Below, in pieces: positions 7,387 to 55,700 of a DNA stretch of 64,000 nucleotides (positions are counted from its first letter, which is position 1; every line of letters begins with the position of its first letter). Location: contig CM119371.1 of NCBI GenBank assembly GCA_051294905.1, positions 38,008,001 through 38,072,000 of the forward strand, given 5' to 3'. Made by a program: the position numbers and the translations under genes. This DNA comes from Botryllus schlosseri (Eukaryota). The notes under the pieces are model-generated. The model saw nothing but the letters and a program-made list of their open reading frames with translations, was not told where the DNA came from and searched no databases.

Positions 7387-7428
<42 letters not shown>

Positions 7429-33500: not shown

Positions 33501-35296
33501 CAAGTCGCCACTGCAGTCCCTCTCTCTGTGTATGCACAACGTGCTGAGAACTGCAGATCCAGAAGAAACTACGCATTCTGGCGAGGTTATCGAGATAGCT
33601 GGAGCGATTCACAACACATGCTACATTTACTTCAAAACGGAAAGACAAAATATAGCTTTGGAGTACTCAAGTAGTTTTTAAGAAATGTCGGTATCGTGAA
33701 ATCGCCTTCTATCCTAATTATAAAAGAGTAGGTCCCCATAAAACTGTCGAGCGCAAGCACGTTGGTAACTGTGATAGTAGACAAAACTGACTCGAGTACC
33801 TCAGAAATAGTGCCTGTATTTCGTTGCTGGCCACGCGCCTGCTTATTCACACCGACTGACTCGCGTAGTAAGCCACTGCGCCCCGTCATCTTCTTATTGC
33901 TCAAATAATATTACAATGAATATACACTAAATTGATTCTAATTTGTCGGTATTGTTATCAGCACAAAAGACACAGTTACATCAAATAATTTTACAATTCA
34001 CGAAATTCATTTTAATTTTTAGGTAGTGTTATCAGCACAAAAGACACAGTTACACAAGTCTCGTAAATTGGTGTTGCTACACTACAATCGTTTTATGGCC
34101 TCTATTTAACGCATAGATCGATCGCGCGAGTGACGTTTCCGCAGACCAATTCTTGGCGTTTGATCAACTCTTGTCTGGTTATGGGGTTTCTAATCACAGG
34201 ACGATTGAGATTCGGGTGTGTCTTTTCGATACGTTGCGCAAACTCGATACCTTTCGTTCGGATTACGTATTCGCACTGCGGAAACCATTTTGCATGCTCT
34301 GTCCAAACCTCGTCTCCCCGGTCCCAACGAAGCCCGCCGCCACAGTAAAAACATTTGGTTCTGTCCGAATCAATGTAGTAAAACCCCGCTTTTGCTAACT
34401 GTTCAACACTAGCCTTAATTTTATTCGGTTCCCAGCCCTTGTCGAACGTTGCGATTCTTTTTGACAACGACGACATGAGAGGATTCACGGGGTTAAGACA
34501 AGGAAATAGTTGCTCAAGACATCGCTTTTCGTCCTCGGAGGGTTCCCGTGGTTCTTGTAGATGCAGTGTGAGACGTCGTATTTTGTCGCCGAGCAACTTA
34601 TCCAAATTGTCTCGTTCGTGCTCGGTTAGCGCCACATTCCCCGAATCGTCGCCACGTGCGAAACAACAACCCGGGTGATACGTCAAGTGTATTTCAGATA
34701 CATCGTCTGTAGGCCTCCAATTGCGGAGAACGCCGGAGCAGTTGAAGCACTGCGTTCTGTCCAGGTCACCGAGGTAGAATAAACCTTGTTTTGCCAACTC
34801 GCCGACCGCCCGTGGTATGGGATAGCTGGGCCATTTCTCAAAGGTTTCGCGACGCTTCGACTCCTTTCGCAAGTCGAGATTCCTAACCCGATACTCGTGC
34901 TCTTGATCAACGATATTCGCAAAGTTGATGTTGGCGTTTCCAACGGCTTTACACTGTCTCAATAAACTTTTGAAATTCGATTTCACAATAGGTATGTTCA
35001 ACGCGTCTCGTACACAATTCGCGTCATGACGCCGTGCACTCGACCCGGTCCATCTTTCGAGGTATACACTGCATCCAAAGCATTTGATTTTGTCTTCAAA
35101 TCCTAGCCAGTAGTATCCTTCAGACGCTAAATCGGTGCGTGTAGCGTATGATACTTTAGAGAATTTGGCGAACGTGGCGAGTCTGTACAATTCACTGCGG
35201 TGTGAACCGGAAGCGATATACACGCGTTTCTGTCCGGGTGGATCAGAGTATCTCTCCATTGACCTAATGCCAAGCTCTTTCATAAACATGAAGTAC
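30584..35296 (+). repeat. Left terminal inverted arm, outer segment (4,713 bp), mirror of 48597-53309
   Basis: Mirrored coordinates sum to 83893 throughout (e.g. ORF ends 34102/49791, 30970/52923). I spotted only two substitutions (near 33928 and 35143). Confidence 0.97.
34102..35289 (-). CDS. IAP: Second IAP copy (395 aa), protein identical to the right-arm copy from Met23; upstream 5' part cut off by the LTR insertion
   Basis: Translation identical to residues 23-417 of 48538..49791. The LTR element starts 8 nt upstream of the ATG. The displaced 5' codons lie at 41494-41552. Confidence 0.93.
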   Translation of the reverse strand: MFMKELGIRSMERYSDPPGQKRVYIASGSHRSELYRLATFAKFSKVSYATRTDLASEGYYWLGFEDKIKCFGCSVYLERWTGSSARRHDANCVRDALNIPIVKSNFKSLLRQCKAVGNANINFANIVDQEHEYRVRNLDLRKESKRRETFEKWPSYPIPRAVGELAKQGLFYLGDLDRTQCFNCSGVLRNWRPTDDVSEIHLTYHPGCCFARGDDSGNVALTEHERDNLDKLLGDKIRRLTLHLQEPREPSEDEKRCLEQLFPCLNPVNPLMSSLSKRIATFDKGWEPNKIKASVEQLAKAGFYYIDSDRTKCFYCGGGLRWDRGDEVWTEHAKWFPQCEYVIRTKGIEFAQRIEKTHPNLNRPVIRNPITRQELIKRQELVCGNVTRAIDLCVK

Positions 35297-35875
35297 TGCC
35301 GCGGTGTATAGGGTTTATGACAACATTGTATTTCAAACCCATATTAGCATATGACGTTGACTTCTTATTGGAATTATGTCGAGTGTTATAAGCTCGTGTA
35401 AGAGCTGGTGACTCACAACCTCCAAACCTTCATGAACCTAAAAACCACAAGCAGATATCATTCGATCTGGCTTTCATTCGATCAGAGGCAACCGCTGTCA
35501 AACTGGCAGAGTGTTGCAATTTATACCGCTGATACAGCTATGAGACAGATGTGATACACCTGTTGCGGGATTATATGATAATATCCAACATTGTGTATTT
35601 CACGCCATATTAGGAAACGAATAAGACTTCCGATTGCAATGATCACGAGTCTATATAAGCGCATGTTTAGTTGACTCGAGAGGAGACTCATTTGCTAAAC
35701 CTACTTGTAACAACGTCTGAAATATATTCGTATGTCTTGCGTCTATCTGCGTCTTAAGAAGATCTCACCAGGATACAGTACAAGACTCCAGGTTAAGTAG
35801 TCAGCCAGCTAACCCTATAATACTTTGGTTAGCTATACTTCTACTCACCAGGACACAACCCATTGTATAGCGACA
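35297..35875 (+). repeat. 5' LTR (579 bp)
   Basis: TG...CA termini. Matches 40911-41489 with one substitution noticed (gactCacaa vs gactGacaa). Confidence 0.95.
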
Positions 35876-36074
35876 TGATGACCCGAGCGATATCTTAAAC
35901 GCTACTACGTTACGTACGAGGACTTTTGACGTTGCCATCGAACTATCAAATTATCAGGATTCCGGACATTGATCAATATACGGTACGTGCTTATATTGCA
36001 TTCTGAAATAAGTATCGCGACAGCCTATAATTCCCTAGCCAATTCGTGTATTACATGTTATATATTATTATATA

Positions 36075-36833
36075 TTGTGCGCATGTTATATGTCTCCTTG
36101 GCTAGTAACTATACCTACGGTCGTTACTTCTAACGTTGATATCCCTAACATTGTTAAGCCCGTAAGAGCTTTCCCAGGTAAGATTAACGGAATGAATGAC
36201 GATGTGTCTAGCAGCGATAACTTCTCAGATTTGATCTTTCCTGATGTAATGTGTGATTCAGCTTCACAGCGCGTGTCTGATTTAAGTGTTATTCAGGATC
36301 ATAAATTAGATATTCCCGCTTTGCGTGATGAAGTAGTTGATACTCACGCAAACGTTGAACGTTGGTTGGCTAGTTCGCTTTCAAATGTTGATTCACAAAT
36401 TGACGCCAACGTCGTTCAGGACAATTCCCTTTTTGATGAGAAATCGCAGTTGAATAAAAACGCGCGCGCCGTACAACTCGATGTTTCGACTAGATTACGC
36501 TTGCGTCTAGTTTACGCGCTGCTAACTATGGTCCAATTAAATTCTGCTCAAATGTTAGATAGTGCACAGCAGAGTAACGTCGCGGGCTTGGGCGCTTGCG
36601 CGCAAACCGTGCGATTCATGCCTTTCAAATTGGCTCTCAGTAGAATTCGGAAAGAATTACAGCTTTTTCATTCAATCAAAAACGCGCTTAAACTTTCAGC
36701 GAGAAGGCACATTATGTGCTGGCGTCACACGAATTACGATAAAAAGGCACGCCAATGTACTGATGTTCGTTTTTGGCACTGGATTGATTTTTGTAAAAAA
36801 TTGACAGAATCAGTGCAGGTTCAGGATTTTTAG
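36075..36833 (+). other. 252-codon ORF in the gag position of the LTR element; product unrecognised
   Basis: Longest ORF of the LTR interior, just downstream of the PBS. No motif I can recognise. Confidence 0.25.
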
Positions 36834-38889
36834 TTGTGGTAGAATCTGTTTACAGCATCCCTGCGTTGGTGGTGTGCTGGCTCTGCCCGCTTCGGAATTT
36901 GACCGTGTTATTTTTGTTTCTATCTTTAGTTTCACATTGTCCATTTTACATTAGACTGTTTCGTGAACATGATTTCCTTTTGGCCTTAAAAGCGCCATGT
37001 TTTATTTCACCGATTCAGCCACGGGTGTGGTACAGTCGATACCACGTGGACGTTGTGACGTCAGAGACACGTTTTCCATACATGTCGCAATTTACAGACC
37101 GCGGGAAAACTTTTTTTTTTTTTAAGCCAGACGACCGCAATTTTCGTTTCAGAACATGATTGCTCCCACTCAAATTCGAGTTACATGAAACCTGTTCCTG
37201 TTTCCCGCGATATAGAACAGGACGTATTAGTGTCGCGAACAGGATATACTCCGCGAGATTCACCTTGCGCGGCTAATTCAAATTTACACGTGCTCGTTTT
37301 TTTTCATACAGAATTGTCTCAGATCCTCTTACAGGCTGGACAAGGTATATTATGCGATCTAAATTTTGACATTTAGGCAAACTTATTAAATTGGTTTTGC
37401 CTTTCACATTTCTCAGCGATACAGCGCTTATCGCAGACTCAGGACGTTGTAATTAGAATTGCACGCCGTCCATTGTTAACTGCTTCTTCAGGCGTACATG
37501 TTCACGCGCCTCGATACAGGAAGTGGTTTTGAATTTTCTTTCAACTCTCACGTTGGCGTGATCTTGCGTTAGTGCGAATTATAAATTTTCTGCTAAACTT
37601 CGTTTATTTTTGAGGTATCCTAGAGCGCTTAGTGCGTTCACTTGGGTAGTTATAGAGAAGTTGGCTCAGTAACGCGCCATATTCGATTTCATACGACACT
37701 GGATTGGCCTTGAGCGTCCAGTGGACAACTGGACATATGGGGTTTCTGCGTAAATGATTGTACATGCTTTAAAAATGGGTATACGGTTCTTTAACCTCAA
37801 ATTGCGTTCCGGCTTAAGTGATTTATCTGGCTATGTTTATCGAATGAAGGACATTGTTAAAATGATCTTAGCACCACCGTTGTATGGGATTTCAGCTCAT
37901 TGCGCAATAATTGCTTTCCCCCCGGTTTGCTGTCAAGAATTCCCCCATTTAATGCAGTTTGGACAACGTTTACCTCATGTAACAAGAATTGAGATGAAGT
38001 CAGCGTGTTTGAGTTTCAGATGTTTGGTGATGGTTTTTTTTCCTCATACCGAACCGCTGTTCAGTCGGGAACATGCGGAAGTTGAGATAGTGACTAGCTA
38101 GCACGTCTCAATGACCACAGCGCTAGCATGCGACTTGTTATAGCGACGATTCTGCAGGTACAGAACCGATCTGATTCTCAATACGAAATCTTGTGTCCAA
38201 TTTGAATACATTCGAATGTAACGTTGCACATCAAATATAGGCTATGCGATTCAGAAATCGCTCATTCCACTTATTGCAAATTCTGCATTATAATTATATT
38301 TAAGTTGACGCCAATGGAGTGCACCGTAATTGGTTTGTCATGGGAATTTCATCATTGATCAGAAATGCTTCCGGCAGTCTGTTATAGTACAGAAAAGCTT
38401 ATTTTTTTCCTGGCGGTCATTGTCGGCTCGGCCGTTAGTTCGTTGGTCAGAATCTATCACGTCTAGCTACTTATAGATAACGGAACAGCTCATTTCGGTT
38501 CAATATTCTAAATATCCGTATCCCACGAAAAATGTTCAATAATTATTTTTAATATAATTATGGCATTCTCATTTCGCAGAACGCGTCTGTAACTCGAATT
38601 CCAATCTCATTACATGATTGTAAAGTATATAGTTGAATCGACGCGCCACGTAGCTTACTGAGACGTTCTTAGATTGTCCAGTAAGGTGGATCCTTAGCCT
38701 GGAAGGATTATGATAGCATTTTATCACACGTATCTCTCCGCATGTTTTTAATTCAGTACTTGCGTGAGTTGTATGCTTCTCATATCGCCAACCGTTATTA
38801 CACCTTTACGGCCTTAAATGCTGTTAGGTGCTGCCTTTGTTTATTTCATTTGGAATTATCGAATTACCTGCCTTAATACGTCACGTCAA

Positions 38890-39703
38890 CATAGGTGACC
38901 CGTCACGAAGTACTTCTAGATATGATTTTCTCTACTTCTACTTCTACTTCGTAATATTTTGTGATCTACTTGCTTACTTTTCGCTATTCAGTTGTCAAGT
39001 AGAAGTAGTGTGATCCTCCAATACGAAGATAGCCTGGGGAATTTCAGGTCTGTTTCATGGAGTACCGACATTCATTTTCATCAAAGTCCAATAAAGCCAG
39101 GAATTTTTCGCTTCGCGCACAGTCGTTGTAATGGACAAATATGTTTTCAGCGAAATGTCGGTGAATATAAATTGGGTTCCGTATTGTGTTGTTCCGCTCA
39201 TACGGCACTGTCGCCCATATCAAATTTCATCACAGTAACTACGGCCATCAAACGCTAGAAACTACCGTTTGGCAATCGGGCAATTACCCTTTGTATCGTA
39301 ATCTAGCAGCCTGGACATGTGCTAATAAGATAAGTGAACTCCAGTGTTGTTATTTTAAGCTGCACCTGTTTTAGCAGACCACCTTTGAAACTTTCTGGAT
39401 AAAAGACATGAAATATATTTTCCGCTTTCAAACGTGGTATTATGTTTCTCTTTCAATTCCGAGAATCATACTTGGTTTAAATACTCCATTTCTTTTGTCT
39501 GCACAACATACATCTTGAAGTATACAGTCAAGTACCGGTATAGTAATTCCTCCATTTTCCGGAATAAGGATACACTATATGGTAAATTTACGATCCAACA
39601 TATTGTTGATTAACGTTGGCCTATAATAATCGCGCAAAGATTGACAGTCCATGCAAACGAATTGAGACTGTTTTCAAAACTACTTGTACTTTTACCACCT
39701 CCG
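38890..39703 (+). mobile_element. hAT-type MITE inside the LTR element, same family as 25141-26436
   Basis: Ends cataggtg...ccacctccg, 8-bp TSD CACGTCAA (38882-38889, 39704-39711). Internal similarity to 25141-26436. Confidence 0.8.
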
Positions 39704-40910
39704 CACGTCAAGTAGTTACCCTCCTTATAGCTTGTAGTTACGGGGCTTTGGAGACATTTATTTCATTGTATTTTATTGCTTGTTTCTCTTGTGTCGTATT
39801 CGTGCTAAGCCTAGTTGTTAAGTCCTTTTCAAAGTGATGCTGGCTGTCGTGTGCTGTTTCAGATTTGCGCATGCACGTTACGAACGCATTTCTACTCGAC
39901 GCGGTGCTCCTGCTTCTACTCCTACGCGTGGCAACTACTCCGATTAGAACATGGAATTGCGATCGATCGATTCGGGCGAGAATACTCCTGAGGCACAATC
40001 TGACGGGTATCACTCAGATGCAAGCACTCGACGTCACACAGTCGACATCGGTACCGAGCGTCCGCTTTTACGACACGAGGAAATTGCTACCGGACCGCCG
40101 CAGTTATTAGCCGACACGACCGACCGAAGCTCAGCTCTCACTACAATCTACACCGGACGCCAACCGGGGTGATCAAATCGTTCCTACCTCAATGGTACAT
40201 GATCGAGAGCTTAATGCCGTTCTGACCCGTCACGATTTACCAGCGGACTCGCCGAAATTGCCGCTTCCAAAGAAGAAGCCCCAACCATAGTAAGTCCTGA
40301 TGCACCGATGAATTCAGGCAATCGCCCTGCCACGGATGAGTAAAGCGGAAGAGCACCGCGCGCGCGTTGATTGAGATAGCCGTCGATTCTATCCAATCAA
40401 AAAATTGTACTTGCGATGTACAATTGTTTTTTTGTAACCGCCACATTGTATATATGGGTGGCCATGGACTGTTGTTAAAGTTGGATAGCCTTCCAGACTT
40501 GGCTGGTGTATTGCACTTGAGCAAGCCTACTGGGATGTATTGTGTATTTGTTTTTTTGTGTTAGGCTACCTATTCTAGTGTATTACTTCGGATAGTGTAG
40601 TGTTGAATAACAATTCTTGCTCTGGTTATCTGGAGTTGTGTTGTATTGTATAGGCTAAATGTAGTTAGTTGTTAGGTCACTATTACTTATTCTAGTGTAT
40701 TAATCTGGAATTGTGTTGTGATCTGCTAGGCTAACTTGTATATTATAAAAGCTGTAGAAAACCTTGTTCACCTCTCGTGTGGTATTAGTGTTGCTGAGTT
40801 GATTTAATTAGTGGAATTGTCTTGGCTAAATGTATTACTGTTGTCTACACCTATACGTATGATAGTTACTTCCGCTTCATTGCATGTTCGCTCCCTCAAA
40901 CAAGGGTCGG

Positions 40911-41489
40911 TGCCGCGGTGTATAGGGTTTATGACAACATTGTATTTCAAACCCATATTAGCATATGACGTTGACTTCTTATTGGAATTATGTCGAGTGT
41001 TATAAGCTCGTGTAAGAGCTGGTGACTGACAACCTCCAAACCTTCATGAACCTAAAAACCACAAGCAGATATCATTCGATCTGGCTTTCATTCGATCAGA
41101 GGCAACCGCTGTCAAACTGGCAGAGTGTTGCAATTTATACCGCTGATACAGCTATGAGACAGATGTGATACACCTGTTGCGGGATTATATGATAATATCC
41201 AACATTGTGTATTTCACGCCATATTAGGAAACGAATAAGACTTCCGATTGCAATGATCACGAGTCTATATAAGCGCATGTTTAGTTGACTCGAGAGGAGA
41301 CTCATTTGCTAAACCTACTTGTAACAACGTCTGAAATATATTCGTATGTCTTGCGTCTATCTGCGTCTTAAGAAGATCTCACCAGGATACAGTACAAGAC
41401 TCCAGGTTAAGTAGTCAGCCAGCTAACCCTATAATACTTTGGTTAGCTATACTTCTACTCACCAGGACACAACCCATTGTATAGCGACA
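40911..41489 (+). repeat. 3' LTR (579 bp)
   Basis: Direct repeat of 35297-35875, followed by TSD GTAC. Confidence 0.95.
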
Positions 41490-43082
41490 GTACCAAGACA
41501 GAGCTTTTGTGTCTAAGCGTGCCCCATAGGTCAACCGAGTCGGCTCACACATATATTCCTAGTTTATCCTTGATAGCTGTATTACTGGTTAGCTGTACTT
41601 TTATGGCTGATTGACAACCGTTAGCTGTCGCTATTGCACCATTTACATATGTGTAGGAGCGGGCCACTTCTGCAGTCCGCGGGGCGTGTGTAGCATAGTA
41701 CCTCGGGCGGTACGAATTGCTGAATCGATACATTATTCGACCACCGATCAACACATACGAGGAATAAATCGTATTCAATGTATTTTGGCAACAGCAATGT
41801 CACTACAAAGCCGTATCTCGCCGATAATAACGAGGACAATGTGGATTTGATAACAGTATTTTTATACAGGCACCGTCATGTCTGCTTCTCTCTAATCAAT
41901 TAACGCGCGGTGCAATACTTAAATAAGGTCTCATAGTGGTCTATAAGCCCGATACCCTAAATTGACAGAGATATCAATTCATTAAGTTGTTTTCTATCGA
42001 CGCTACAGACAAGTACCAGTAAACACAAACCAAATTGTCACACTGTTGCGTCAATTCACCGACGACTCAGTATGAGACCTATCTCGACCAACGAATGTAC
42101 GTCGGGTAACTGAAACAGGTGACCTTGCGTTGTGGGTATTTTCGATAACACCGATACGGCAACTTTATTCTCTCTACTGGTAATGTGATGGAGAGCGGCT
42201 TAATTCATCAGACAAAGATTAGAAGCAACAACTAGCAAACACAAATCTAATGGCCACACCGACATTCACAGGTATTCGATAGACCCTATCGTACCAAGGT
42301 CACCCAACTCTTGTAATCACAGTTATTCGACTGACCCGATCATACAGAGGTAACCCCACTTCTGTAATGGTACGGGTACGAAGCGTTTTGAACGGTGTTG
42401 CTCGGGTCGCGGTTCTTGGCCTTCCAAGACCTTTGTTAGCATCAGTCTATCTCACTGTTTGGAGTGCCGATGTCAAACGTCGTAATAGCGATCACTCGGT
42501 CATGTGTAGAATATAGAAATTGACATCTATTTGCACGACCTCGTGGCTTTGGTAAACTTACTGAAGCGGAAAGTCACTGCCAAGCTGAACATTGATCGAT
42601 CGTTCTCTTGTTAGCGTCGATATTCGCTCGTACGTGCTTTCATGTCTTTGAATGTTTGTTATCGTCGAGTGTGGTCATAAATAGACAGGGGGACAAATTT
42701 GATGCGTTCAACACAATACGCGTTTACCGCATCTCATTCTGGACCGTAACCGATCGTTTACCGCACCTACGATAAATGTCGCATTTTACTCATGGGTAAG
42801 CCGATGATCTGTGAAAACACAGGCGCTAACGTGTCATTTCGTTATTCCTTAAACGTCACATTATCCCCTATCTAGGCTTTTGGGGTGCCCATCAATACAG
42901 TGTTGATCCACCCCACTGCGTGCTATACGCCTCAATAAATATGTTTACTCGAGTTTACACCTGGTGTGGAGCAGTGAAGCGGGTGCAAAAAGTAGATTAG
43001 ACAACACAAACCAGTTGACTACATCGATTAATATACGAGGGTTCATCAATTTTGTCAAGTGACTTTTGAATGGATGTTATTT
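41490..43082 (+). repeat. Left inverted arm, inner continuation beyond the LTR insertion
   Basis: 41490-~41861 mirrors ~48229-48600 (sum 90090). 41955-~43082 mirrors ~45954-47081 (sum 89036). Reconstructed arm length is ~6.3 kb. Confidence 0.93.
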
Positions 43083-44688
43083 GTTTGTTGTTTGATGGAT
43101 AAGATTGTATTCAATCATAAACTACTAATATACTTCTTGTGGTGCTAAACCTGATTATACAAATGAATCAAACAGTATTCCACCAATTGGGAGTAGTTGC
43201 CCGTCGTCGTGATTTATCTCCTAGTTCGCGGTGGTAACGAAGAATGTATAACACGAGTGGAAATCGTACAATAGCGACAATTAACTGTTGTCAGTAGTCC
43301 ACAATAATACAGCTAACAAGTAATCTATAGAGCTTTCAAGAAGAAACTAGGAGTATAAGCGGTTAGCCCTAACTTGTCGTTCCACGACTGATTAATCCGA
43401 TTTTGTCACGATGGGACTCGGTAGTAATTGCCCGTACGATAGAGTAAATCAATCTCAAAACCTAATGGAATCTTAATCCACCAAAATTTCACAAATAAGT
43501 TTTTTTTTCTAAATCCTAATCAATACACATCTTTGGCGTATACGCACAAGTTTTGTCAAAACAACAGATTGATGGAGCGTGGCTGACATTGATTGCGACA
43601 CTCGATCACAGTTCTTCTGGTGGAATTTTTCAACGGTAAATTCAAAGCTAGGTCGAGGGGGTCAAACAGCATTTCTCTCACGGTAGCACTCCGCCGAGTC
43701 AATACATCCATAGTATGATATTTGTCGCAACTATGTTTTGTTGAGGGTGTTGAGGATATTTTGCGGTGTATGTTTTCCACAGGCTGCAAGTTACGATAGG
43801 GGAGGACGTATTTTTATATTTATACCGCTAATTTCATTAGATTGACTAGAAAACAATGTCATTTCTTCTGACTTGACTACCGAAATACCCGTCAATTACT
43901 TTGTGTTGTGCGAGTTAGCTAAATGAAAGGTCACTCACCGAAATTGACCAGACCTACATTTCGCGTTATTCGTGGTGTTTTTTGTTATTTTAAGTTAAAA
44001 ATGAGGACAAATTTACAAAAAAGGAACACATTTGGGCGAAGGTTGTACATATTTGGGAAAAGAAGGAGGATAACCCTATAAATATACGGATCGATGTGAG
44101 CATCAAATGTATCGCATTGCTGTCAATCCACTCGAATATGCGAGTTTAGTCAAACAGGAGATTGATGACTGACACTGTTTGTGTCATACTCGATTGATCA
44201 CAGCTGGTTTGTGTACACCACATCTCATCGAAATTACAAGCATTCGAGTGATGACCGTTGGGTTTGCTGACAGTTAAAGTTGTTATCGTTGTGAGATGGA
44301 TAAGATTTTGCTGATATACTTCGTGTGGTGCTAAACCCTACTACAATAACAACACATGTACAGACAATTCAAACAGAATTCCGGCAATGGTTCGATACAA
44401 AGTTTCACTGTACGCAAATGAATATGCAACGAAACCCCGCATATCGTGTAATGACAGCAGAACCATTTTGCATAGACGGGGGTGGTCACGAATCGGTTCC
44501 GGACCCCCGAATTTCATCGGTTTTGAGTGAAGTCGGACTGGATACGGCCACGTATCTTTGAGAGTCAGATTTATACTAGATTTTATCCTCACAATATGTG
44601 GGAATAACAGGACTTTGCGTATCACCCGGGATTTACTCCAATTCGCAGTGCAAACTGGCTTTCGGTGCACCCGAGAATGCGCGTCCAC

Positions 44689-45654
44689 CAGTGTTGGGAT
44701 CAAGTCACTACCTTCGAGTCACGAGTCATTTCGAGTCATTGCACATTTTGACTCGAGTCAAGTCAAGTCAATCGATTTTCGAAGGTGACTCGAGTCAAGT
44801 CAAGTCAGTCGATTTTTGGAGGTGACTCGAGTCAAGTCGAGTCAAGTCAAGTCAAGTCACGAGTCAAGTCACAATTCAAGTCAAATTGCCGTCTGAGGTA
44901 TGAGACGTGATTACGTCATTGTATTTTGCTAGCTGTCTGAAATACAGATTATAAGTGGTCATTGATTTTGAACCGATGAAGGGATATAGAGTTAAATACA
45001 CACGCAAGTGAGGCGCTGTAGCGCTCACATATAAGTAGAACCAATAAACTACGTAAGTAATTGCACAACCTCAGTTTATAGTTACCAGCCCAAATAGAGA
45101 ATAGAGAAACGAATTGATAAGATGTAATACATTACCCTTTTGCAAATTGATATGATACAATTCGAGCCTGCGCCAATGGTTGAGGACTATATATTTTTGA
45201 ATTCAATTTCAATAAAACAAGAGGTTTGGTTGATAAGTTAAGAACACAGAACAGGAATGGACATTTTGGTATTAAATTACTTTCCTATACTAAAGTCAAG
45301 ACAACGTAGGCTGTAAACTTCGATCACGTCGTTTGCCATCAATATATTTGTGAGAGAACAATGGAGGCTCAGTAAAACGCACGATCATTGAATGATTGGC
45401 TGCTCTCAGGAGACACCAGCGTTGCGCGAGCAATCCGAACATATGCAATGATTTTTATAGACACCGATTACTTGATGACTTGAAATTGACTCGTGAGTTT
45501 TGCTCCGAGTCACGAGTCAATCCACGTTTCTGATACGCCGAGTCAAGTCAAGTCAAGTCATTTCAGCAAAGTGACTCGAGTCAAGTCAAGTCATACGAAA
45601 AAGTGACTCGAGTCTGACTCGAGTCAAGTCATGACTCGAGTCATCCCAACACTG
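44689..45654. mobile_element. hAT-type MITE with GAGTC/AAGTC subterminal repeats in the foldback spacer
   Basis: TIR cagtgttgggat / atcccaacactg. Perfect 8-bp TSD GCGTCCAC (44681-44688, 45655-45662). Confidence 0.92.
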
Positions 45655-47081
45655 GCGTCCACCCCTCCAAACACATAGTTACGGGGTATGGCGGGGACCC
45701 GGAAACTCGGGGTATAGCTTATTAGTAATTCTACCGGATGACTTATTTTAGCACCGGATGATTTTAATGCTTGACGTTTGCCTTGTTTTATCTAACGAGT
45801 GTAAAATTTCAACTAGATGTACGCTGCACAAAGTGTACAGTGTACATACCCCCGACCAGGCAGCAGCGCTCAAAAGTGTGTTTAACCCAACGGAAACACC
45901 GCTAATTACGTTACTATTTCAAACTACAGACAGAGTGGGGGTTTATATGGCAAAAATAACACCCATTCAAAAGTCACTTGACAAAATTGATGAACCCTCG
46001 TATATTAATCGATGTAGTCAACTGGTTTGTGTTGTCTAATCTACTTTTTGCACCCGCTTCACTGCTCCACACCAGGTGTAAACTCGAGTAAACATATTTA
46101 TTGAGGCGTATAGCACGCAGTGGGGTGGATCAACACTGTATTGATGGGCACCCCAAAAGCCTAGATAGGGGATAATGTGACGTTTAAGGAATAACGAAAT
46201 GACACGTTAGCGCCTGTGTTTTCACAGATCATCGGCTTACCCATGAGTAAAATGCGACATTTATCGTAGGTGCGGTAAACGATCGGTTACGGTCCAGAAT
46301 GAGATGCGGTAAACGCGTATTGTGTTGAACGCATCAAATTTGTCCCTCTGTCTATTTATGACCACACTCGACGATAACAAACATTCAAAGACATGAAAGC
46401 ACGTACGAGCGAATATCGACGCTAACAAGAGAACGATCGATCAATGTTCAGCTTGGCAGTGACTTTCCGCTTCAGTAAGTTTACCAAAGCCACGAGGTCG
46501 TGCAAATAGATGTCAATTTCTATATTCTACACATGACCGAGTGATCGCTATTACGACGTTTGACATCGGCACTCCAAACAGTGAGATAGACTGATGCTAA
46601 CAAAGGTCTTGGAAGGCCAAGAACCGCGACCCGAGCAACACCGTTCAAAACGCTTCGTACCCGTACCATTACAGAAGTGGGGTAACCTCTGTATGATCGG
46701 GTCAGTCGAATAACTGTGATTACAGGAGTTGGGTGACCTTGGTACGATAGGGTCTATCGAATACCTGTGAATGTCGGTGTGGCCATTAGATTTGTGTTTG
46801 CTAGTTGTTGCTTCTAATCTTTGTCTGATGAATTAAGCCGCTCTCCATCACATTACCAGTAGAGAGAATAAAGTTGCCGTATCGGTGTTATCGAAAATAC
46901 CCACAACGCAAGGTCACCTGTTTCAGTTACCCGACGTACATTCGTTGGTCGAGATAGGTCTCATACTGAGTCGTCGGTGAATTGACGCAACAGTGTGACA
47001 ATTTCGTTTGTGTTTACTGGTACTTGTCTGTAGCGTCGATAGAAAACAACTTAATGAATTGATATCTCTGTCAATTTAGGG

Positions 47082-48228
47082 CAGTGGTTCTTAAACTTTT
47101 TTGAGCGCGACCCAAATCTGAGTTTCATGATCACCTCACGACCCAAATCTCAAACATAAAAAAATGTATTTTTTGTGTTACCACTCTGCTAATTTTTCAG
47201 ATAAGACACAGACAACCAGTTATAGTACACAGTACTATGAAAGAACAATTTATTAGAGACAGATCATTCATTCAGTGTGATTGATGAAACTGAAAGTTCT
47301 CTTTCATAATATTTTCAATGCACGGCTCTATCTTACTGAGCGCAATGCGCAAATCGTCTCCAGGACCGAGGCGATTGCGAGCCCTGGTTTTAACAACCGT
47401 CAGTGCGGAAAATCCTTGCTCACACAGATAAGTGGTCGCAAATGGGAGCAGAAAAGCCATTGCTTCGTTACCGATTATTGGCTTTTCCTTTTTAACCGAA
47501 GTCCAGAACTCTCCAAGTGACGCAGAGGAAAAAAGAAGTCGATGGAATTGGTCATGATGCAGGTCGATAAACTCTTCCTGTATTCCTGCAACATCCTCTG
47601 GTAAATTGTCAACCCTTGCCAAAAACGGATCTTGATACAAAGCGCGCTCGAATCATGACGCAACGCAGCAGATAATCGATGATCACCTCGCAAATCACAA
47701 TGTATCAGATCAGATGGAAGTAGCAAACAAATTTCGATGACAGCGAGGCATCTTGACCTTAATTACCAAAGCGAGGATGTAATCACGAAAGTGCGCGCAG
47801 ATCATATTACAGCACAGTGGAAGATCTCTCCATTTTGCGCTCAAAGACGAACACTCGAACAGTGAAGACACGCAAATGAATTATAGTCTGTTGCCGTTTG
47901 AAACAAACAATCTGGATTAATTTTGTTTTAAATCAATATGATTTTTACTGTCTGCCAAGATGGTGTAGTATTTTTGGTGTGTGGAGATGGTAAAGACTAA
48001 TTACTGCTCGAGCTTGTGCGATTGCATCATGTGAATAACAGTGGCCTGGCGCAGGCTTAGATTCGCGATCAAAATACATTCCATTCCTTAACTTAGTCTT
48101 TTTAGCAGCTACTGGGCTAAGTAGTTACGCCTAGTGTAGCTGCGCTGCCATTGAAACTCTTAGAAAACCACTTATGATGCAATAATCCACTAAGAAGCTA
48201 AATGAAATGCGTATGATGAAGCAATAAT
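47082..48228 (-). mobile_element. One-ended (truncated) hAT/Charlie-like DNA transposon in the right arm
   Basis: TIR-like cagtggttcttaaactttt begins exactly where arm homology breaks (47082). Contains a transposase remnant. The other end and ~93 bp of arm are missing. Confidence 0.8.
47272..47640 (-). pseudogene. hAT (Charlie/ZBED5-like) transposase C-terminal dimerisation-domain remnant
   Basis: LGEFWTSVKKEKPIIGNEAMAFLLPFATTYLCEQGFSALTVVKTRARNRL...DLRIALSKIEP...QFHQSH* is a typical Charlie-type C-terminus. No N-terminal part. Confidence 0.88.
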
Positions 48229-48537
48229 AAATACTGTTATCAAATCCACATTGTCCTCGTTATTATCGGCGAGATACGGCTTTGTAGTGACATTGCTGTT
48301 GCCAAAATACATTGAATACGATTTATTCCTCGTATGTGTTGATCGGTGGTCGAATAATGTATCGATTCAGCAATTCGTACCGCCCGAGGTACTATGCTAC
48401 ACACGCCCCGCGGACTGCAGAAGTGGCCCGCTCCTACACATATGTAAATGGTGCAATAGCGACAGCTAACGGTTGTCAATCAGCCATAAAAGTACAGCTA
48501 ACCAGTAATACAGCTATCAAGGATAAACTAGGAATAT

Positions 48538-49791
48538 ATGTGTGAGCCGACTCGGTTGACCTATGGGGCACGCTTAGACACAAAAGCTCTGTCTTGGTAC
48601 TTCATGTTTATGAAAGAGCTTGGCATTAGGTCAATGGAGAGATACTCTGATCCACCCGGACAGAAACGCGTGTATATCGCTTCCGGTTCACACCGCAGTG
48701 AATTGTACAGACTCGCCACGTTCGCCAAATTCTCTAAAGTATCATACGCGACACGCACCGATTTAGCGTCTGAAGGATACTACTGGCTAGGATTTGAAGA
48801 CAAAATCAAATGCTTTGGATGCAGTGTATACCTCGAAAGATGGACCGGGTCGAGTGCACGGCGTCATGACGCGAATTGTGTACGAGACGCGTTGAACATA
48901 CCTATTGTGAAATCGAATTTCAAAAGTTTATTGAGACAGTGTAAAGCCGTTGGAAACGCCAACATCAACTTTGCGAATATCGTTGATCAAGAGCACGAGT
49001 ATCGGGTTAGGAATCTCGACTTGCGAAAGGAGTCGAAGCGTCGCGAAACCTTTGAGAAATGGCCCAGCTATCCCATACCACGGGCGGTCGGCGAGTTGGC
49101 AAAACAAGGTTTATTCTACCTCGGTGACCTGGACAGAACGCAGTGCTTCAACTGCTCCGGCGTTCTCCGCAATTGGAGGCCTACAGACGATGTATCTGAA
49201 ATACACTTGACGTATCACCCGGGTTGTTGTTTCGCACGTGGCGACGATTCGGGGAATGTGGCGCTAACCGAGCACGAACGAGACAATTTGGATAAGTTGC
49301 TCGGCGACAAAATACGACGTCTCACACTGCATCTACAAGAACCACGGGAACCCTCCGAGGACGAAAAGCGATGTCTTGAGCAACTATTTCCTTGTCTTAA
49401 CCCCGTGAATCCTCTCATGTCGTCGTTGTCAAAAAGAATCGCAACGTTCGACAAGGGCTGGGAACCGAATAAAATTAAGGCTAGTGTTGAACAGTTAGCA
49501 AAAGCGGGGTTTTACTACATTGATTCGGACAGAACCAAATGTTTTTACTGTGGCGGCGGGCTTCGTTGGGACCGGGGAGACGAGGTTTGGACAGAGCATG
49601 CAAAATGGTTTCCGCAGTGCGAATACGTAATCCGAACGAAAGGTATCGAGTTTGCGCAACGTATCGAAAAGACACACCCGAATCTCAATCGTCCTGTGAT
49701 TAGAAACCCCATAACCAGACAAGAGTTGATCAAACGCCAAGAATTGGTCTGCGGAAACGTCACTCGCGCGATCGATCTATGCGTTAAATAG
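48538..49791 (+). CDS. IAP: Inhibitor of apoptosis protein with 3 BIR domains, no RING, intronless (417 aa; alternative start 48604 gives 395 aa)
   Basis: BIR1: ELYRLATF...LASEGYY...CFGC-x14-H-x3-C (atypical spacing). BIR2: RRETFEKWP...LAKQGLFY...CFNC-x16-H-x6-C. BIR3: RIATF...LAKAGFYY...CFYC-x15-H-x6-C (WTEHAKWFPQC). Single uninterrupted ORF. Confidence 0.95.
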   Translation: MCEPTRLTYGARLDTKALSWYFMFMKELGIRSMERYSDPPGQKRVYIASGSHRSELYRLATFAKFSKVSYATRTDLASEGYYWLGFEDKIKCFGCSVYLERWTGSSARRHDANCVRDALNIPIVKSNFKSLLRQCKAVGNANINFANIVDQEHEYRVRNLDLRKESKRRETFEKWPSYPIPRAVGELAKQGLFYLGDLDRTQCFNCSGVLRNWRPTDDVSEIHLTYHPGCCFARGDDSGNVALTEHERDNLDKLLGDKIRRLTLHLQEPREPSEDEKRCLEQLFPCLNPVNPLMSSLSKRIATFDKGWEPNKIKASVEQLAKAGFYYIDSDRTKCFYCGGGLRWDRGDEVWTEHAKWFPQCEYVIRTKGIEFAQRIEKTHPNLNRPVIRNPITRQELIKRQELVCGNVTRAIDLCVK

Positions 49792-52700
49792 AGGCCATAA
49801 AACGATTGTAGTGTAGCAACACCAATTTACGAGACTTGTGTAACTGTGTCTTTTGTGCTGATAACACTACCTAAAAATTAAAATGAATTTCGTGAATTGT
49901 AAAATTATTTGATGTAACTGTGTCTTTTGTGCTGATAACAATACCGACAAATTAGAATCAATTTCGTGTATATTCATTGTAATATTATTTGAGCAATAAG
50001 AAGATGACGGGGCGCAGTGGCTTACTACGCGAGTCAGTCGGTGTGAATAAGCAGGCGCGTGGCCAGCAACGAAATACAGGCACTATTTCTGAGGTACTCG
50101 AGTCAGTTTTGTCTACTATCACAGTTACCAACGTGCTTGCGCTCGACAGTTTTATGGGGACCTACTCTTTTATAATTAGGATAGAAGGCGATTTCACGAT
50201 ACCGACATTTCTTAAAAACTACTTGAGTACTCCAAAGCTATATTTTGTCTTTCCGTTTTGAAGTAAATGTAGCATGTGTTGTGAATCGCTCCAGCTATCT
50301 CGATAACCTCGCCAGAATGCGTAGTTTCTTCTGGATCTGCAGTTCTCAGCACGTTGTGCATACACAGAGAGAGGGACTGCAGTGGCGACTTGCTTCAGTC
50401 GAGTAACGGGCGATGTCGATTTCACACGCATACCAAAGTACATCTTGTGAGAATGATATACCATCACCCCGGCTATTCTCGGTACGACGTTGGATCATTT
50501 GGCTGTACTAAGGTAGGTATACCCCGGCATGGTCGACTGCGCTCGATCTTTTTACATGTAACGGTAGATTACGTCGCTTTTACTGTTCACCTATACTTCA
50601 TGTAAAGGTAGTTTACGTCGCTTTTACTATTCACTTATACATGTTTACACAGGCCCACGTATATCCACGTAATAGCCAGCACAATACCATCATAGCGTCA
50701 TTTTTCCGATTTGGCTACGTACCCGACTTTTGTAATCTAGGCCCACATTTTGCGTTACTCGTGGTGTTTTTTGGATATGTTAAGCTAACAAGGAGAGCAA
50801 ATTGACAGAAAGAGAGTACATTTTGGCGAAGGGTGACATATCTGGGAAATGGAGGACATATGCTCCCCTAAATGAGGCCGCATGGTAACCCTATTAAAAT
50901 AGGAGGGTCGACGGGGACATCAAATATATCGCGTTGCTGTCAACCAGAAAACGCGAGTTTTGTCAAGTCGCAGATTGATGACTGACAGCGATTGTGTCAC
51001 GCTCGATTGATCACAGCTGATTTACGTACATCACACCGCGTCGTTGACCGTTGACCGCATGTTGACCGGTAAAGCTATTGTCATCGTGACACGATTTTTA
51101 CCAATATACTTCTTGAGGTGCCAAATCTGATCGCACTAATAACACCTGTATAGACGAATCAAACAGAATCCCGCCAAAGGGGCGATACCAAGTCTCATTG
51201 TACGTAAATTATTATACAACGACACCTATATTACAGCAGAACAATCTTGTCTGGACGGAGGAGGTCACGAAACATCTCCGGACCCGGCGCAGATTTCATC
51301 AGTTTTCAGCGAAGCCAGATTGGATGCGGCCAAATGGCCTTGAGAGTCGGATTTATACTATATTTTGTCCTCACAACATGTGAAAATAACAGGACTTTAC
51401 GTGCTAGCCTGATTTTCTGGACTTTGATTTGGCAACCCGAGTCGGGGTGGAGTCAGAATTCGAAATCTCTCGCTCATCTTTACACCTCACCGAAAGTAGG
51501 CTAGATCGCATCTCGTATGATCTGACACAATTCATCCCCCATTATTGCACCACCGCAACCGAGCGTGTTTCAACAAAATAACGTCGGTCCACTGATCCCC
51601 GCTAAAGCGAGCTATCCCAGATTCGTCACTGTACAATTGAATCTGACATCGTACTCGCAGTTACCGAGAGGAAAATGCAAGGCCCGAAGGCGTGACACAG
51701 CAATTCTCTGACGGTAACACTCCCCCCGAATCCATATATCCGTAGTATGATGCCGCAAATATGCTTGGAGGTGTTGGCATAACATGTGTTGAGGATATAT
51801 GATGCCGCGAATATGCTTGGAGGTGTTGGCATAAAATGTGTTGAGGATATATTTACGACACATACGCGAACACAACTGATTGTCTGCAGCGAAATTTGTC
51901 GACTTCGAGCGACAGTGCGTGGCTGCCGAAGCAATATACCCGTGGTAAGCAATATACCCGTAGTATGATATTGTAAATATGTGTGGAGGTGTTGAGGATT
52001 TTTTACGGGGCACGCGGACACAAGTGATTGTCTGCAGCGAAATGAGTCGCCCTCGAACGACAACTGCGTGGTGAGCTCGTGATCGATATGTGTATGTTAC
52101 AGACGGGTAAAGCATTCGTTCGCCAACAGATCGATTCAAGTTGTGCAATGTACATCATGTACACTGTACAGCATACAAAATTAATATGACGCGGTAAATT
52201 GTATGTCATTTACAGACACCGGCACGATTACGCTGGACCAGACGTGAAGCAGTAAAAGAACCCATCATAAATACATTGTTTGGTTGGGACTGTCTGTCCT
52301 AAGACGCTAGAACGCGGTATAGGTATGGAACAGCAGTTGTTGCTTGCACCGATTACTAGGTACGTAATGCCGGAAGTTAACACGTTGATGAATTGAGAAT
52401 CAGCTATTTGTTTAATTACTTATTATTTTCATAATCCTATTTTATTTAAGTCAATCCATGTCGGGGCGCCTAATACAAATTTCTACTACATTTAATCTGA
52501 TTCTCGGTATGACTCGAAATGACACATATATTTATAATCATAACAGATCATTTCTCCTCACTATTTAAGTCAACAAAAAAGCAAAAGGCGGACAAGTACG
52601 ACAGTATGAGACAGACCACAAGCGTCACTTTACACAGACGGACGTATAGGCACCTAAAACACGCACCAGAATCTAACGGATCAGGAGAAAACTACACTGA

Positions 52701-55700
52701 CGTCACGACCGGCAATTATTCCTATGAACCACCGTACACGAAATTGAGTCAACCGCGGAACGACGAGTCAACCAGTTTGACGGGTTATTGCTCCCAAGCC
52801 ACGAAATTGAACCACGAGACGACGGGTCAGGGCAGGCAACTATTATCACCGTCGCGTACGACCGGAGTCAGCTGTAGTTTCGTGTCCTTGTTCAGAGGTC
52901 AAGCGAGACAGATTAAATCATGAGTGGAAAAGTACAAGTAGAATTACTAATCAATAAGTTTCACGTCTGGTCAGAGTACAAAAGGTCAATCGATATTTTG
53001 GAAGCTGATTACGTTCAATATATTCGCAAACCCCAGAATAAAGGCAGGTAGAATCAGGAGGCGAGTGGAAAAGTACAAGTAGAATGACTCAAGTCTCATG
53101 TCTGAGTACAAAGGTCAATCCAGATTCTTCGTTCGTTTTCTCTCTATCGTTAATTATTCCCCTTTTTTTGATTGCCGCACACAGGGTCATAAAAGTATTG
53201 CTGCAAAAATGAGAATGAGCTAATTCTTTCATTGTTTATTATATTGATAATCTTTGTTTGTTTATTATAAATCGCGAATGGGCACCTTCCGCCCATTTCT
53301 CTAACTACTTACGCGTCAGTAAGTCTCATCGAAGTTGGATGAAAAGCTTTACGTAGTTTACCTACAATTCGATAATATGAATATATTTTTGAGCCAATAA
53401 CATAACAAATATAACTAAACTTTAGCCAATTCTACAATTTTCTAAATAGCCCTATGGTAGGGTTACCATACGTCCTCTTTTTAGAGGATTTGTCATCATT
53501 TTTTACTTTTTTGAAAGTGTCCTCGGAGGACGCCCTTTTGTCCTCTTTTTTTTTGAGATTTTGTCCATTTTTTGAGAATTTTGGTCATATTTATAGCAAA
53601 ATGCGACTGAGATGCCGTAAATCAGCACCGAAGTGACGCTCCGGCGGGTATTTCGGGAGCTGAGTGGAAAGTTGACCTTTTTTTTAGTCAACCGTCTACA
53701 ATATAGGAAAAATTTACAATTTATTTGAGAATTCTCCTCCTATTTTGCAAGTCTGAAAATCCTGAAAAAGTGTCCTCTTCTCGGATTTCCAAAATATGGT
53801 AGCCCTACCTATGGTCCACCTCAAAATGCTCCTGTGGCCCACTGTTTGAGAACCCCTAAGCTAGACTAATCGGCGACTTGACGTATCAATATCGAAGGTT
53901 TCGCCCATAATGCGTATATCATTTCATCGGCGACGATCTTTCTGCGAGGGCACAGGTGAAGTCGGATGCTGAACGACACGTTGTTTCATAATTGCTAATA
54001 TAGTCTGATTCAATTCTGTACCTTAGTAATATTTTTTAATATGATAATAATTTTCTTGAGGGGTACCGATAACAGAAGCAAGCCACCGAGTGACATTAAA
54101 TTTCAAAAGTTCAAGTTAAATAAATGCGCCGCGAAATATTCAACTTTATTGTAATATACGAAAATCTACAAACATGCGGTTGGTCCCTGACTACGCCAAT
54201 CCGTCGGCGCTGATAGTTTAGTCATCAAGATACCAAGTTTTGTGGTCAAGCCAATCAGATTTTTGACTGGCCTTACAAGTAATAAATTATCTGGGCATTT
54301 GATATAACTAATTTAGACAATTACCTCGCGGGGCACTCAAAACCTTCTTACGGGTGACAGGTTGGTCATCCCCAATATATTGCATCGATTCCCAACCAGA
54401 AAGCGTTTGCTTTTTCTCTGGGGTTCGCGGAGACGACAATAAAATCATCATCATCATCATCATCATTTTAACAACATTGTTATTAAATCAAAACACCCGC
54501 CATCTCACTGATTCTGCATTTTTCGTTCATGAATTGAATGAATTACGTATTTGTTTTAACACAGTTGTAACGGAATGGCAATTGTTGCGCACATAGTCGT
54601 TGATATGAGTTACCGCGACGCAAGTTTCCGAACCGCTGATGCATATATTCAACTAAGCATTATTTCTCGGCTGTGACGTGGGCCTATTTCTCTCGCGCGG
54701 AATCGCGGAAGTGCTCGTTTGTGAGAAGTTTGCAGCGTTGCTAGTTACTTGTGAGTAGCGAAATATCTGTACAACGTATGGTGTCGGCCTCGTGTAAAAT
54801 GACGATTGACGATTGATCTCGAAGCACCATGAATACCAAACGAACAAATCATCACATCAACAATAACGGCCTGATGTGAGTCGGATTGTAGGCAGAGTAT
54901 TGTATATCATCGATCATGGAGCGCTTATTAAACTCAGCTTAAACCGGAAGGATGTTCATAATTCGAACCCGAACCAGATAAGTCTGACCAAACTGCACAA
55001 TTATTACAACAAAAATCCAAGTAAACAATCCTGACTCTCAACAACAGAAACTCAAAGGGGAAATTCGGACGCCAAACGCTCTCTGCCAACTATCTTGAAA
55101 TTGGAAGTCGATGACATTCGAAGTGAATATAAGCTCTACGTATTTTTGAGACGCTTTTTCGTGCCTTCCTTGCAATACACTATAATTTGAGACATTCTAG
55201 TCTAGCTAGTCTAGCTAGTCTGTTTTAACTGTTATCTCGGCAATCAGGAGACATCGTTGTGGCACATGCTCCCTGTATTTCTGATTTCTGATTTCTGACG
55301 GATAACAGTTAGTTTGGTGCAAAGAATGTTCAGATGCGCGCCAAACTCAACGTATACCCGAGTTTAGTCGCCTACCGGCTTCCAATGAAGATTCCCTAAC
55401 GTTGAAATACCGGAATGTTCATGGCATAGATCTGTCGATCATTTGAAGAATTTTATGAACACCGCTTTAGTCTGTGGTAAAACATAGGCCTATACACACG
55501 CTCGGCTTGGCGTGACACATAATTTAACGTAACCTACAATGCGCTTACAGAATCACCGCCGTTATAGCAGACTCCGCCGTTCTATGGTCGCTGGCACGCC
55601 CACGCTACAGTCAACGGCAGCTAATTTCAAACGCAATTAGCTAAATCCTAACGACTTTCCTGTGAGCTTATTTCATGCAGGCTCATTGACGTTTTTTGAT

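Follow-up and report, generated by a model that had tools for sequence, protein, structure and literature searches.

An intronless, RING-less inhibitor-of-apoptosis gene carried by palindromic transposons with Maverick-type ends in Botryllus schlosseri

What kind of gene is the inhibitor-of-apoptosis (IAP) gene found in a 64,000-nt stretch of the genome of the ascidian Botryllus schlosseri, and what has kept it intact? The stretch (assembly GCA_051294905.1, contig CM119371.1, positions 38,008,001 to 38,072,000 of the forward strand) is called the window here, and positions are window-based. The gene is cargo of a transposon, with one copy in each arm of a large palindrome. Its cargo status, host origin, truncation, copy number and long-term purifying selection can be regarded as established. 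Taken together, these properties are probably best explained by a functional, intronless, three-BIR IAP that derives from a cellular IAP of ascidians, travels as the cargo of a palindromic transposon with Maverick-type ends, and dampens apoptosis.

The open reading frame (ORF) at 48538-49791 on the forward strand encodes 417 aa with three BIR stretches (Pfam PF00653, E 1.2e-46). IAP/BIR-domain proteins are recognised by at least one BIR with CCHC zinc ligands; here all 12 ligands are present, and their spacings (x14/x3, x16/x6 and x15/x6 in BIR1, BIR2 and BIR3; Table 1) were re-read from the sequence exactly as given by a first-pass annotation of this DNA, which had been made from the sequence alone. 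No RING family was detected in the protein by Pfam, including PF13920, the RING that characterises IAPs of the cIAP/XIAP type. When 12 ascidian and vertebrate IAPs were compared with the window by tblastn (E≤1), each gene copy gave one continuous match (for example, to residues 53-462 of the 574 aa of Styela P0001), and the RING or UBA parts of the 12 queries matched nowhere in the 64 kb. The gene is therefore intron-free and RING-less within the window, as the first-pass annotation had claimed on both counts. In an alignment with other IAPs (alignment A2), the cargo proteins end ~25 residues past the motif PNLNRPxIRN (PNLNRPVIRN in the window copy), ahead of the RING and of the UBA-like region with an MGF motif that lies between BIR3 and RING and is absent from the cargo protein. 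That end point, 54 residues beyond the last BIR3 Cys region of the window protein, agrees with the ~55 aa proposed earlier and with the description of the gene as streamlined, since the cellular proteins continue into the UBA-like region and RING.

The start of the gene is better placed elsewhere. The first-pass annotation began the ORF at 48538, and translation probably starts instead at the ATG of codon 33 (48634, M33). This ATG is retained in all 30 of the fetched loci of family 1, the elements with the window-type cargo (family 2 denotes a sister cargo that is 72% identical). Upstream of it, other copies of the family have frame-shifting indels within the first ~45 nt of the 48538 ORF, and 9 of the 30 loci have a TGA at codon 32; the likely coding sequence (CDS) is therefore 48634-49791. 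At the other end, the usual stop of the family is a TGA at codon 415 of the 48538 ORF, which the window copy has lost, so that it runs three codons further to a TAG. A “TGA inside” flagged by the search in other copies is this normal stop.

What carries the gene? A second IAP ORF lies on the minus strand at 34102-35343, and the element that contains both copies is flanked by a 6-bp target-site duplication (TSD). The flanks of 30584-53309 recur, joined directly, at 5808-18809, where a single TACGCG marks the empty site. A nested long terminal repeat (LTR) retrotransposon (6.2 kb, 579-bp LTRs, TG..CA ends, TSD GTAC) is a later insertion; it severs the left-arm gene from its upstream region 35 bp before the ATG. 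Without it, the element measures ~16.5 kb, with arms of ~6.3 kb, a centre of 2.9 kb, and ends AGTAGT...ACTACT. None of the 49 other ORFs of at least 70 aa in 30584-48600 has a Pfam match (E≤0.01), which bears out the earlier remark that the rest of the arm has no long recognisable ORF. ORFs in the centre that are shared with one other copy were rejected as genes because the same DNA is open in several frames that overlap, and because two further copies lack them. The flanks are themselves part of a 15-kb duplication (3063-18809 versus 26127-30583 plus 53310-64000, 96-99.5% identity) of which one copy is empty and one filled; it is a tandem duplication of recent date, or else a pair of haplotypes that the assembly placed one after the other, and in the latter case the insertion is polymorphic.

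The same architecture recurs in other stretches fetched from this genome (locus labels L0xx; genome G000, chromosomes C1, C3, C4, C5 and C7). Three other family-1 elements, on other chromosomes, measure 14.0, 15.1 and 16.3 kb, have arms of 6.3-6.9 kb at 99.9% identity, are bounded by their own TSDs (AGCAAT, ACTATA and GGCATA), and contain no transposase ORF. A family-2 element of 14.8 kb (L037+L038, G000:C4:18240000-18256999, merged 1054-15846) is self-complementary from end to end (99.8%); its ends read AGTAGTAAAGAAATGG and its TSD is ATTACT. At the centre it has two intact RING-less IAPs of 404 aa in facing orientation, opposite to that in family 1. A 6-bp TSD thus flanks five of five elements on five chromosomes (TACGCG, AGCAAT, ACTATA, GGCATA and ATTACT). 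A search of the genome for a subterminal 28-mer pattern gave 68 forward and 67 reverse occurrences (135 termini), versus 0 for a reversed control. With 6.3-6.9-kb arms in 14-16-kb elements, the family consists mainly of two long inverted arms, the hallmark of foldback elements. A 19.4-kb relative (L039+L040, G000:C7:20128400-20148399) matches these elements at its ends and in the outermost 3.2 kb of its arms, and has no IAP; the IAP is thus cargo of only part of the element family. The unpaired centre of that relative has a 153-aa ORF with four C2H2 zinc fingers. A 20.2-kb family-1 element (L047+L048+L008, G000:C3:35898700-35917221) has an intact right IAP and a left IAP split by a 4.7-kb insertion. 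Only one IAP was listed for it, and it was considered as an asymmetric ancestor; it proved to be an ordinary palindrome, its left IAP being split by that insertion.

How many copies exist, and have they been maintained? A protein search of the genome listed 106 IAP matches from 455 first-look candidates (105 of them scored), mostly in inverted pairs. By hand count, family 1 accounts for 73 of the 106 (87-100% identity) and family 2 for 31 (62-73%), with 2 intermediate matches at 78-79%. The 30 fetched family-1 loci are free of indels between about nt 70 of the 48538 ORF and the stop (~1.18 kb), and 26 of them are uninterrupted; premature stops occur in the remaining four (L013, L025/L026 and L027). 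Within an element, the CDS of one arm differs from that of the other by 0-2 nt. Selection was measured on one arm per element, which left 20 independent copies and 190 pairs after 10 second arms were dropped. Within family 1, mean dN is 0.020 and mean dS 0.091, a ratio of 0.22, and variable sites fall 39/39/81 across the three codon positions. Between families 1 and 2, dN is 0.178 and dS 1.20, a ratio of 0.15. These low ratios, within families and at a dS of 1.2 between them, show purifying selection on the IAP gene through a long history inside the element lineage, at the level of sequence comparison; the first-pass annotation had read the intact ORF in this way, and had proposed the dN/dS comparison between copies as a check. 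None of the 20 copies departs from the 12 zinc ligands or from their spacings. The site-normalised ratio of nonsynonymous (N) to synonymous (S) changes is 0.29 in BIR1, 0.43 in BIR2, 0.13 in BIR3 (the lowest among the domains) and 0.46 in the tail; a 27-residue helix region after BIR3 has 0 N versus 7 S changes, a ratio of 0. Variants seen in a single copy number N40:S31 plus two stops, shared variants N33:S50, against a neutral site ratio of 3.55. Comparison of elements gives 94-96% identity in the CDS and 77-93% in other blocks of the arms. Both families are without RING and with the x15 spacing in BIR3.

Where did the gene come from? The best of 109 database relatives are IAPs of Styela clava (39-45% identity), Ciona and Phallusia, at 38-47% for the three genera taken together; almost all of the 109 have a RING. 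When the RING end of P0001 was compared with the B. schlosseri genome, it gave 127 matches, among them RING exons clustered in short open frames as well as 24 matches in open frames of 505-583 aa. One such cluster (L043) is a multi-exon host IAP gene in which exons for BIR2, BIR3, a linker and the RING are parted by introns, at least five in number, with GT/AG signals. A maximum-likelihood tree (30 rows, 554 columns; ultrafast bootstrap and SH-aLRT support) joins families 1 and 2 at 100/100, and joins these with the host multi-exon gene, the L042 protein (described below) and one further protein at 99/97; the row for the host gene is partial, covering 48% of columns from four exon translations. 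That group lies inside a Styela-containing clade (99/98), within an ascidian clade (97/94). Given this nesting, the cargo gene descends from a cellular IAP of this ascidian lineage, and the tree supports capture from a stolidobranch cellular IAP.

Several proposals of the first-pass annotation can be judged against these results. Its suggestion of a captured host gene was to be checked by phylogeny, and the cargo does nest among stolidobranch host IAPs at 99/97. Its remark that motifs of the protein resemble ascidian cellular IAPs fits the presence of FPCxxPxNP and PNLNRPxIRN in both. The comparison of intron structure that it called for gave a host IAP with GT/AG introns and a RING exon. It would have abandoned capture had the closest host paralogs been equally intronless and RING-less; family-2 genes are both, but these are cargo of sister palindromes, not host genes, and so do not count against it. 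Its report of an adjacent host gene with five introns in 1.1 kb is another matter: no such gene was located, and a Pfam search of the 104 flank ORFs of at least 60 aa returned only a reverse-transcriptase fragment. A locus at C5:9.515 Mb was considered as the host progenitor and rejected as a degenerate family-2 copy without a RING.

The capture is, by the dS of 1.2 between families, old. Like a processed retrocopy, the cargo gene has lost all parental introns, matching continuously where the host paralog has at least five; this loss at once suggests a cDNA intermediate in the capture. There is no A-run after the stop, and poly(A) and TSD marks would be erased after a dS of 1.2. Capture may have happened more than once in this genome. 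L042 (G000:C1:36672000-36680999) holds an intron-free IAP gene for a protein of 564 aa, which has three BIRs, a RING and a UBA-like region and shares 49% identity with the window protein. The gene is one of nine same-strand intron-free ORFs, which also encode a UBC E2, an ISXO2/IS1595-like DDE transposase and a leucine-rich repeat protein. The array is present at no fewer than 22 loci, with a transposase of 94-100% identity ~3 kb from the IAP-RING match, and a second, 40%-identical transposase lies 22-25 kb away at L042-like loci. Arrays of this type are copies of one giant element, either virus-like or a very large transposon, with an independent IAP capture.

What moves the palindromes? With a 6-bp TSD and 5'-AG...CT-3' termini with terminal inverted repeats (TIRs), they resemble Maverick/Polinton elements. 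Those elements also encode their own protein-primed PolB and rve integrase, and none of the 49 ORFs matches either; lacking any Pfam-recognised ORF besides the IAP, the palindromes are therefore at most non-autonomous Maverick derivatives. A resident Maverick/Polinton of 15.8 kb (L044-L046, G000:C1:30838413-30854242) has 884-bp TIRs, TSD CACGGG, an rve+chromo integrase (E 2.3e-16), and a large ORF with a PolB match of 21 bits, below the cut-off of 25.8. Its ends begin AGTAGTATAG, with an AGTAGTA start like that of the IAP palindromes, and the two have in common the first 7-8 terminal bases, the length of the TSD, and one ATGGGCGG 8-mer near the end. We consider it fairly probable that the IAP palindromes are non-autonomous elements mobilised by Mavericks; as palindromic (foldback or snap-back) DNA transposons, they would be moved in trans by the integrase of resident Mavericks. 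The palindromes themselves may each have arisen by copy-back of one half. Such an origin fits the near-identity of the arms within an element as against 5-20% divergence between elements, the opposite gene orientation in families 1 and 2, and a stretch of ~2.2 kb in the element at C3:14.86 Mb (L033+L034, G000:C3:14855500-14873499, merged 6259-8469 plus mirror) that the window element does not have. This stretch is identical in both arms, which must therefore have been copied from one another, or homogenised, after its entry. A 235-aa ORF in both arms of the same element was considered as a fragment of a long interspersed nuclear element and was not so called, as it has no Pfam match.

What would the protein do? 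The first-pass annotation had called the spacing of BIR1 and BIR3 unusual, which holds in part: x14 in BIR1 and x15 in BIR3 are specific to the cargo, whereas the H-x3-C of BIR1 is general to the aligned ascidian IAPs. In alignment A2, H-x3-C (with x18 before the His) is common to the other aligned ascidian IAPs except the Ciona row P0009, which has no aligned His; the loop before this His is x14 in family 1, x16 in family 2 and x18 in the others. One-residue deletions in BIR3 (YYI-DSD and LR-W) occur only in the two cargo families. Despite its missing residue, which lies directly before the first Trp, this BIR3 aligns with BIR3 of human cIAP1 (E 1e-25) and retains W, D/E, E-H and W; we take those acidic and Trp positions to be groove residues by which a type II BIR holds IAP-binding-motif (IBM) peptides. 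In an AlphaFold2 model built from A2, the mean predicted local distance difference test (pLDDT) score is 75.9, with most of BIR2 and BIR3 at 82-95, BIR1 lower (Table 1), and the linker 94-107 and both termini below 50. The protein would thus still be expected to fold into zinc-binding BIR domains. Having no RING, it would ubiquitinate neither itself nor its partners, and the absence of self-ubiquitination would make it a stable stoichiometric binder: a long-lived protein that persists and binds, rather than degrades, caspases or IBM-bearing pro-death proteins in its BIR2 and BIR3 grooves. Dampened apoptosis could then be of use to the host, or to cells with an active element (or helper). That an expressed protein acts as this predicted decoy or binder is what we infer from the sequence.

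Several observations weigh against a functional inhibitor of this kind. BIR1 is shortened and modelled with lower confidence, and the one-residue deletion in BIR3 adjoins the strand that pairs with IBM peptides. In RNA raw-read run X21, of which ~12% was read, no read fell on the CDS, and run X24 gave a few partial reads on the CDS at a depth of at most 4. (Contig sets X1 and X3, labelled “RNA?” and probably DNA, cover the coding and non-coding arm evenly and alike.) The link to a Maverick integrase consists of the terminal bases, TSD length and subterminal 8-mer named above. A trans-acting protein is hard to select per copy in a non-autonomous element, and selection confined to a few source copies may be what the low dN/dS shows. 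Finally, passages of PMC13159474 state that tunicates have lost caspase-9 and Apaf-1, the classical partner system of BIR3, so that the binding partner is more likely to be another caspase or an IBM-type antagonist.

If selection has kept the gene, for whose benefit did it act? That a palindromic Maverick satellite, with neither capsid nor polymerase, kept an apoptosis inhibitor for the element's own benefit is a possibility we put forward tentatively. Retention of the IAP over a dS above 1 between branches would imply that snap-back replicons go through a phase of replication that stresses the cell, when the element gains from blocking the death of its host cell. Selection could instead have acted during viral replication, not in the transposon phase, if the palindromes are copy-back defective genomes of an IAP-carrying virus akin to Mavericks or adintoviruses and the IAP is an accessory gene of that virus. 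The Maverick-type ends and TSD agree with this, as do arms that are near-identical in each element and 5-20% divergent between elements, and if each half of an asymmetric parent gave snap-back copies, the IAP should point in opposite directions in the two families, as it does. An IAP also appears among the leafhopper adintovirus ORFs named in a figure legend of bioRxiv 10.64898/2026.07.28.741253. We nevertheless regard a viral accessory gene as doubtful. The one resident Maverick examined has no IAP, and no asymmetric parent bearing an IAP was found, the 20-kb candidate being an ordinary palindrome with an insertion. A whole-genome Pfam search for pPolB (PF03175) and adenain (PF00770) returned no match, but its controls were silent too, and it is hence uninformative. 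Alternatively, one or a few copies could be RING-less IAPs domesticated and selected by the host, with the other ~100 copies being neutral, recent, decaying daughters that bring the element no gain. Single-copy variants are indeed less constrained than shared ones, premature stops are already present in 4 of the 30 sampled copies, one left copy is split by a 4.7-kb insertion, and the left copy in the window has been cut off from its upstream region; moreover, species-specific amplification of IAPs is common in animals according to passages of PMC13159474. We consider this unlikely, as single-copy variants are still far from the neutral ratio of 3.55, and as two families with opposite gene orientation have both kept the ORF after a dS of 1.2. 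Selection has thus stayed with the gene while the elements turned over many times.

Two simpler accounts would dispense with selection or with the palindrome itself. The ORF could be a non-functional passenger that has stayed open through the youth of the family or through gene conversion between arms. Homogenisation within elements, or recent copy-back, is real, given that the arms of one element differ by at most 2 nt in the CDS. Against this, dS between independent elements is 0.09 and omega (dN/dS) 0.22 with no indels, dS between families is 1.2 and omega 0.15, and the non-coding parts of the arms have a rate of divergence two to four times that of the CDS; a mere passenger is thus very improbable. 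A false palindrome or false duplication created by assembly seems more improbable still. The near-identical 15-kb flank duplication in the window, possibly two haplotypes in tandem, is the observation that invites it, but a haplotypic duplication of the flanks would merely turn the empty site into an allele, and a separate 6-bp TSD flanks every one of five elements, which lie on five chromosomes, while the genome as a whole has 135 termini. A functional three-BIR IAP carried by Maverick-ended palindromes is the reading we prefer.

How does this system compare with those already known? The cellular IAPs of stolidobranch ascidians (the Styela clava “BIRC7-B-like” protein P0001 and the host L043 gene) likewise have three BIRs in the same order and H-x3-C in BIR1, at 45-49% identity. 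Unlike them, the cargo has no introns, UBA-like region or RING, is borne by a transposon in ~100 copies, and has a BIR1 loop that is four residues shorter and a BIR3 that is one residue shorter. It also falls outside the cIAP/XIAP type (three BIRs, UBA and RING), having neither RING nor UBA. Host-derived apoptosis inhibitors are textbook weapons of large DNA viruses; baculoviruses and entomopoxviruses carry IAPs, and most viral IAPs consist of two BIRs and a RING. The cargo resembles these virus-borne genes in being a host-derived, intron-free apoptosis inhibitor kept under selection on mobile or virus-like DNA, and differs in its RING-less protein of three BIRs and in a carrier that has no polymerase, integrase or capsid gene. 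Mavericks are known to carry cargo genes, and the palindromes share with them the 6-bp TSD, the 5'-AG...CT-3' ends, the AGTAGTA start of the resident Maverick, and a size of 14-16 kb; in contrast to Mavericks, they contain no Maverick gene, nearly the whole element is one inverted repeat, and the IAP is the sole conserved ORF. Foldback transposons such as Drosophila FB and sea-urchin TU also consist almost wholly of two long inverted arms. FB elements have arms of short tandem subrepeats, a MuDR-type helper and a 9-bp TSD, whereas here the arms do not seem to be built of such subrepeats, the TSD is 6 bp in five of five elements, and each arm carries a host-derived, selected gene. The lineage-specific amplifications of animal IAPs treated in passages of PMC13159474 similarly involve many dispersed, often intronless copies, some without RING. 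For such dispersed intronless duplicates, the same passages invoke retroposition and unspecified transposon activity in general, the vehicle being inferred, whereas here it is read copy by copy, with ends and TSDs. According to a passage of PMC10542563, a botryllid has over 10 orthologs of BIRC2. Searches of open-access PMC and bioRxiv found no paper that places an IAP in a transposon of the foldback or non-autonomous kind, and none that reports foldback elements from ascidians.

What are the implications? The vehicle by which IAP families amplify is usually only inferred, and here it can be read from the ends, the target duplications and an empty site, with a cargo that is under measurable purifying selection though its carrier encodes nothing else. 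Three questions thereby become testable: whether a non-autonomous transposon can be selected for a trans-acting gene that manipulates its host; what role a three-BIR protein without RING or UBA has in a lineage said to lack caspase-9 and Apaf-1; and whether giant palindromic elements are copy-back genomes of virus-like transposons. If a satellite did keep the gene for its own benefit, it would be a transposon-level counterpart of the IAP strategy of baculoviruses, and ~100 ligase-less IAP genes could reshape the control of apoptosis in a colonial or regenerating chordate.

Table 1. Features of the IAP-carrying palindrome and its insertion site, in window positions
Feature	Position	Strand	Remarks
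Right-arm IAP gene, likely CDS	48634..49791	+	385 aa, conserved ATG to TAG
BIR1	48706..48882	+	C-x2-C-x14-H-x3-C; pLDDT about 59-80
BIR2	49039..49233	+	canonical C-x2-C-x16-H-x6-C; pLDDT 84-92
BIR3	49432..49626	+	C-x2-C-x15-H-x6-C; one-residue deletion ahead of conserved Trp
Left-arm twin IAP gene	34102..35259	-	differs from right-arm gene by 1 nt in the 1146-nt CDS compared
Whole inserted element	30584..53309		22,726 bp, termini 5'-AGTAGTTAGAG...CTCTAACTACT-3'
Left TSD, TACGCG	30578..30583		junction alignment
Right TSD, TACGCG	53310..53315		junction alignment
Empty paralogous site, single TACGCG in duplicated flank	9168..9173		junction alignment
Left arm, outer 4,713 bp	30584..35296		99.96% complementary to 48597-53309
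Right arm, outer 4,713 bp	48597..53309		pairs with 30584-35296
Inner left-arm continuation	41489..43082		41489-41865 pairs with 48224-48601; 41955-43082 pairs with 45954-47081
Nested LTR retrotransposon, foreign to the family	35297..41489	+	LTRs 35297-35875 and 40911-41489, 99.8% identical
Unpaired palindrome centre	43083..45953		no conserved ORF found

Some minor features complete the window. The nested LTR element has a 264-aa ORF (36039-36830) without a Pfam match. The reverse-transcriptase fragment mentioned above (PF00078, E 4.7e-06, under the cut-off) is at 21129-22010 on the minus strand, in the interval that separates the flank duplicates. The arms are unequal at 47082-48223, with ~1.05 kb found in the right arm alone, against 89 bp in the left. 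Within this stretch, run X21 has RNA reads on 47100-47541, so the inserted repeat is transcribed somewhere in the genome.

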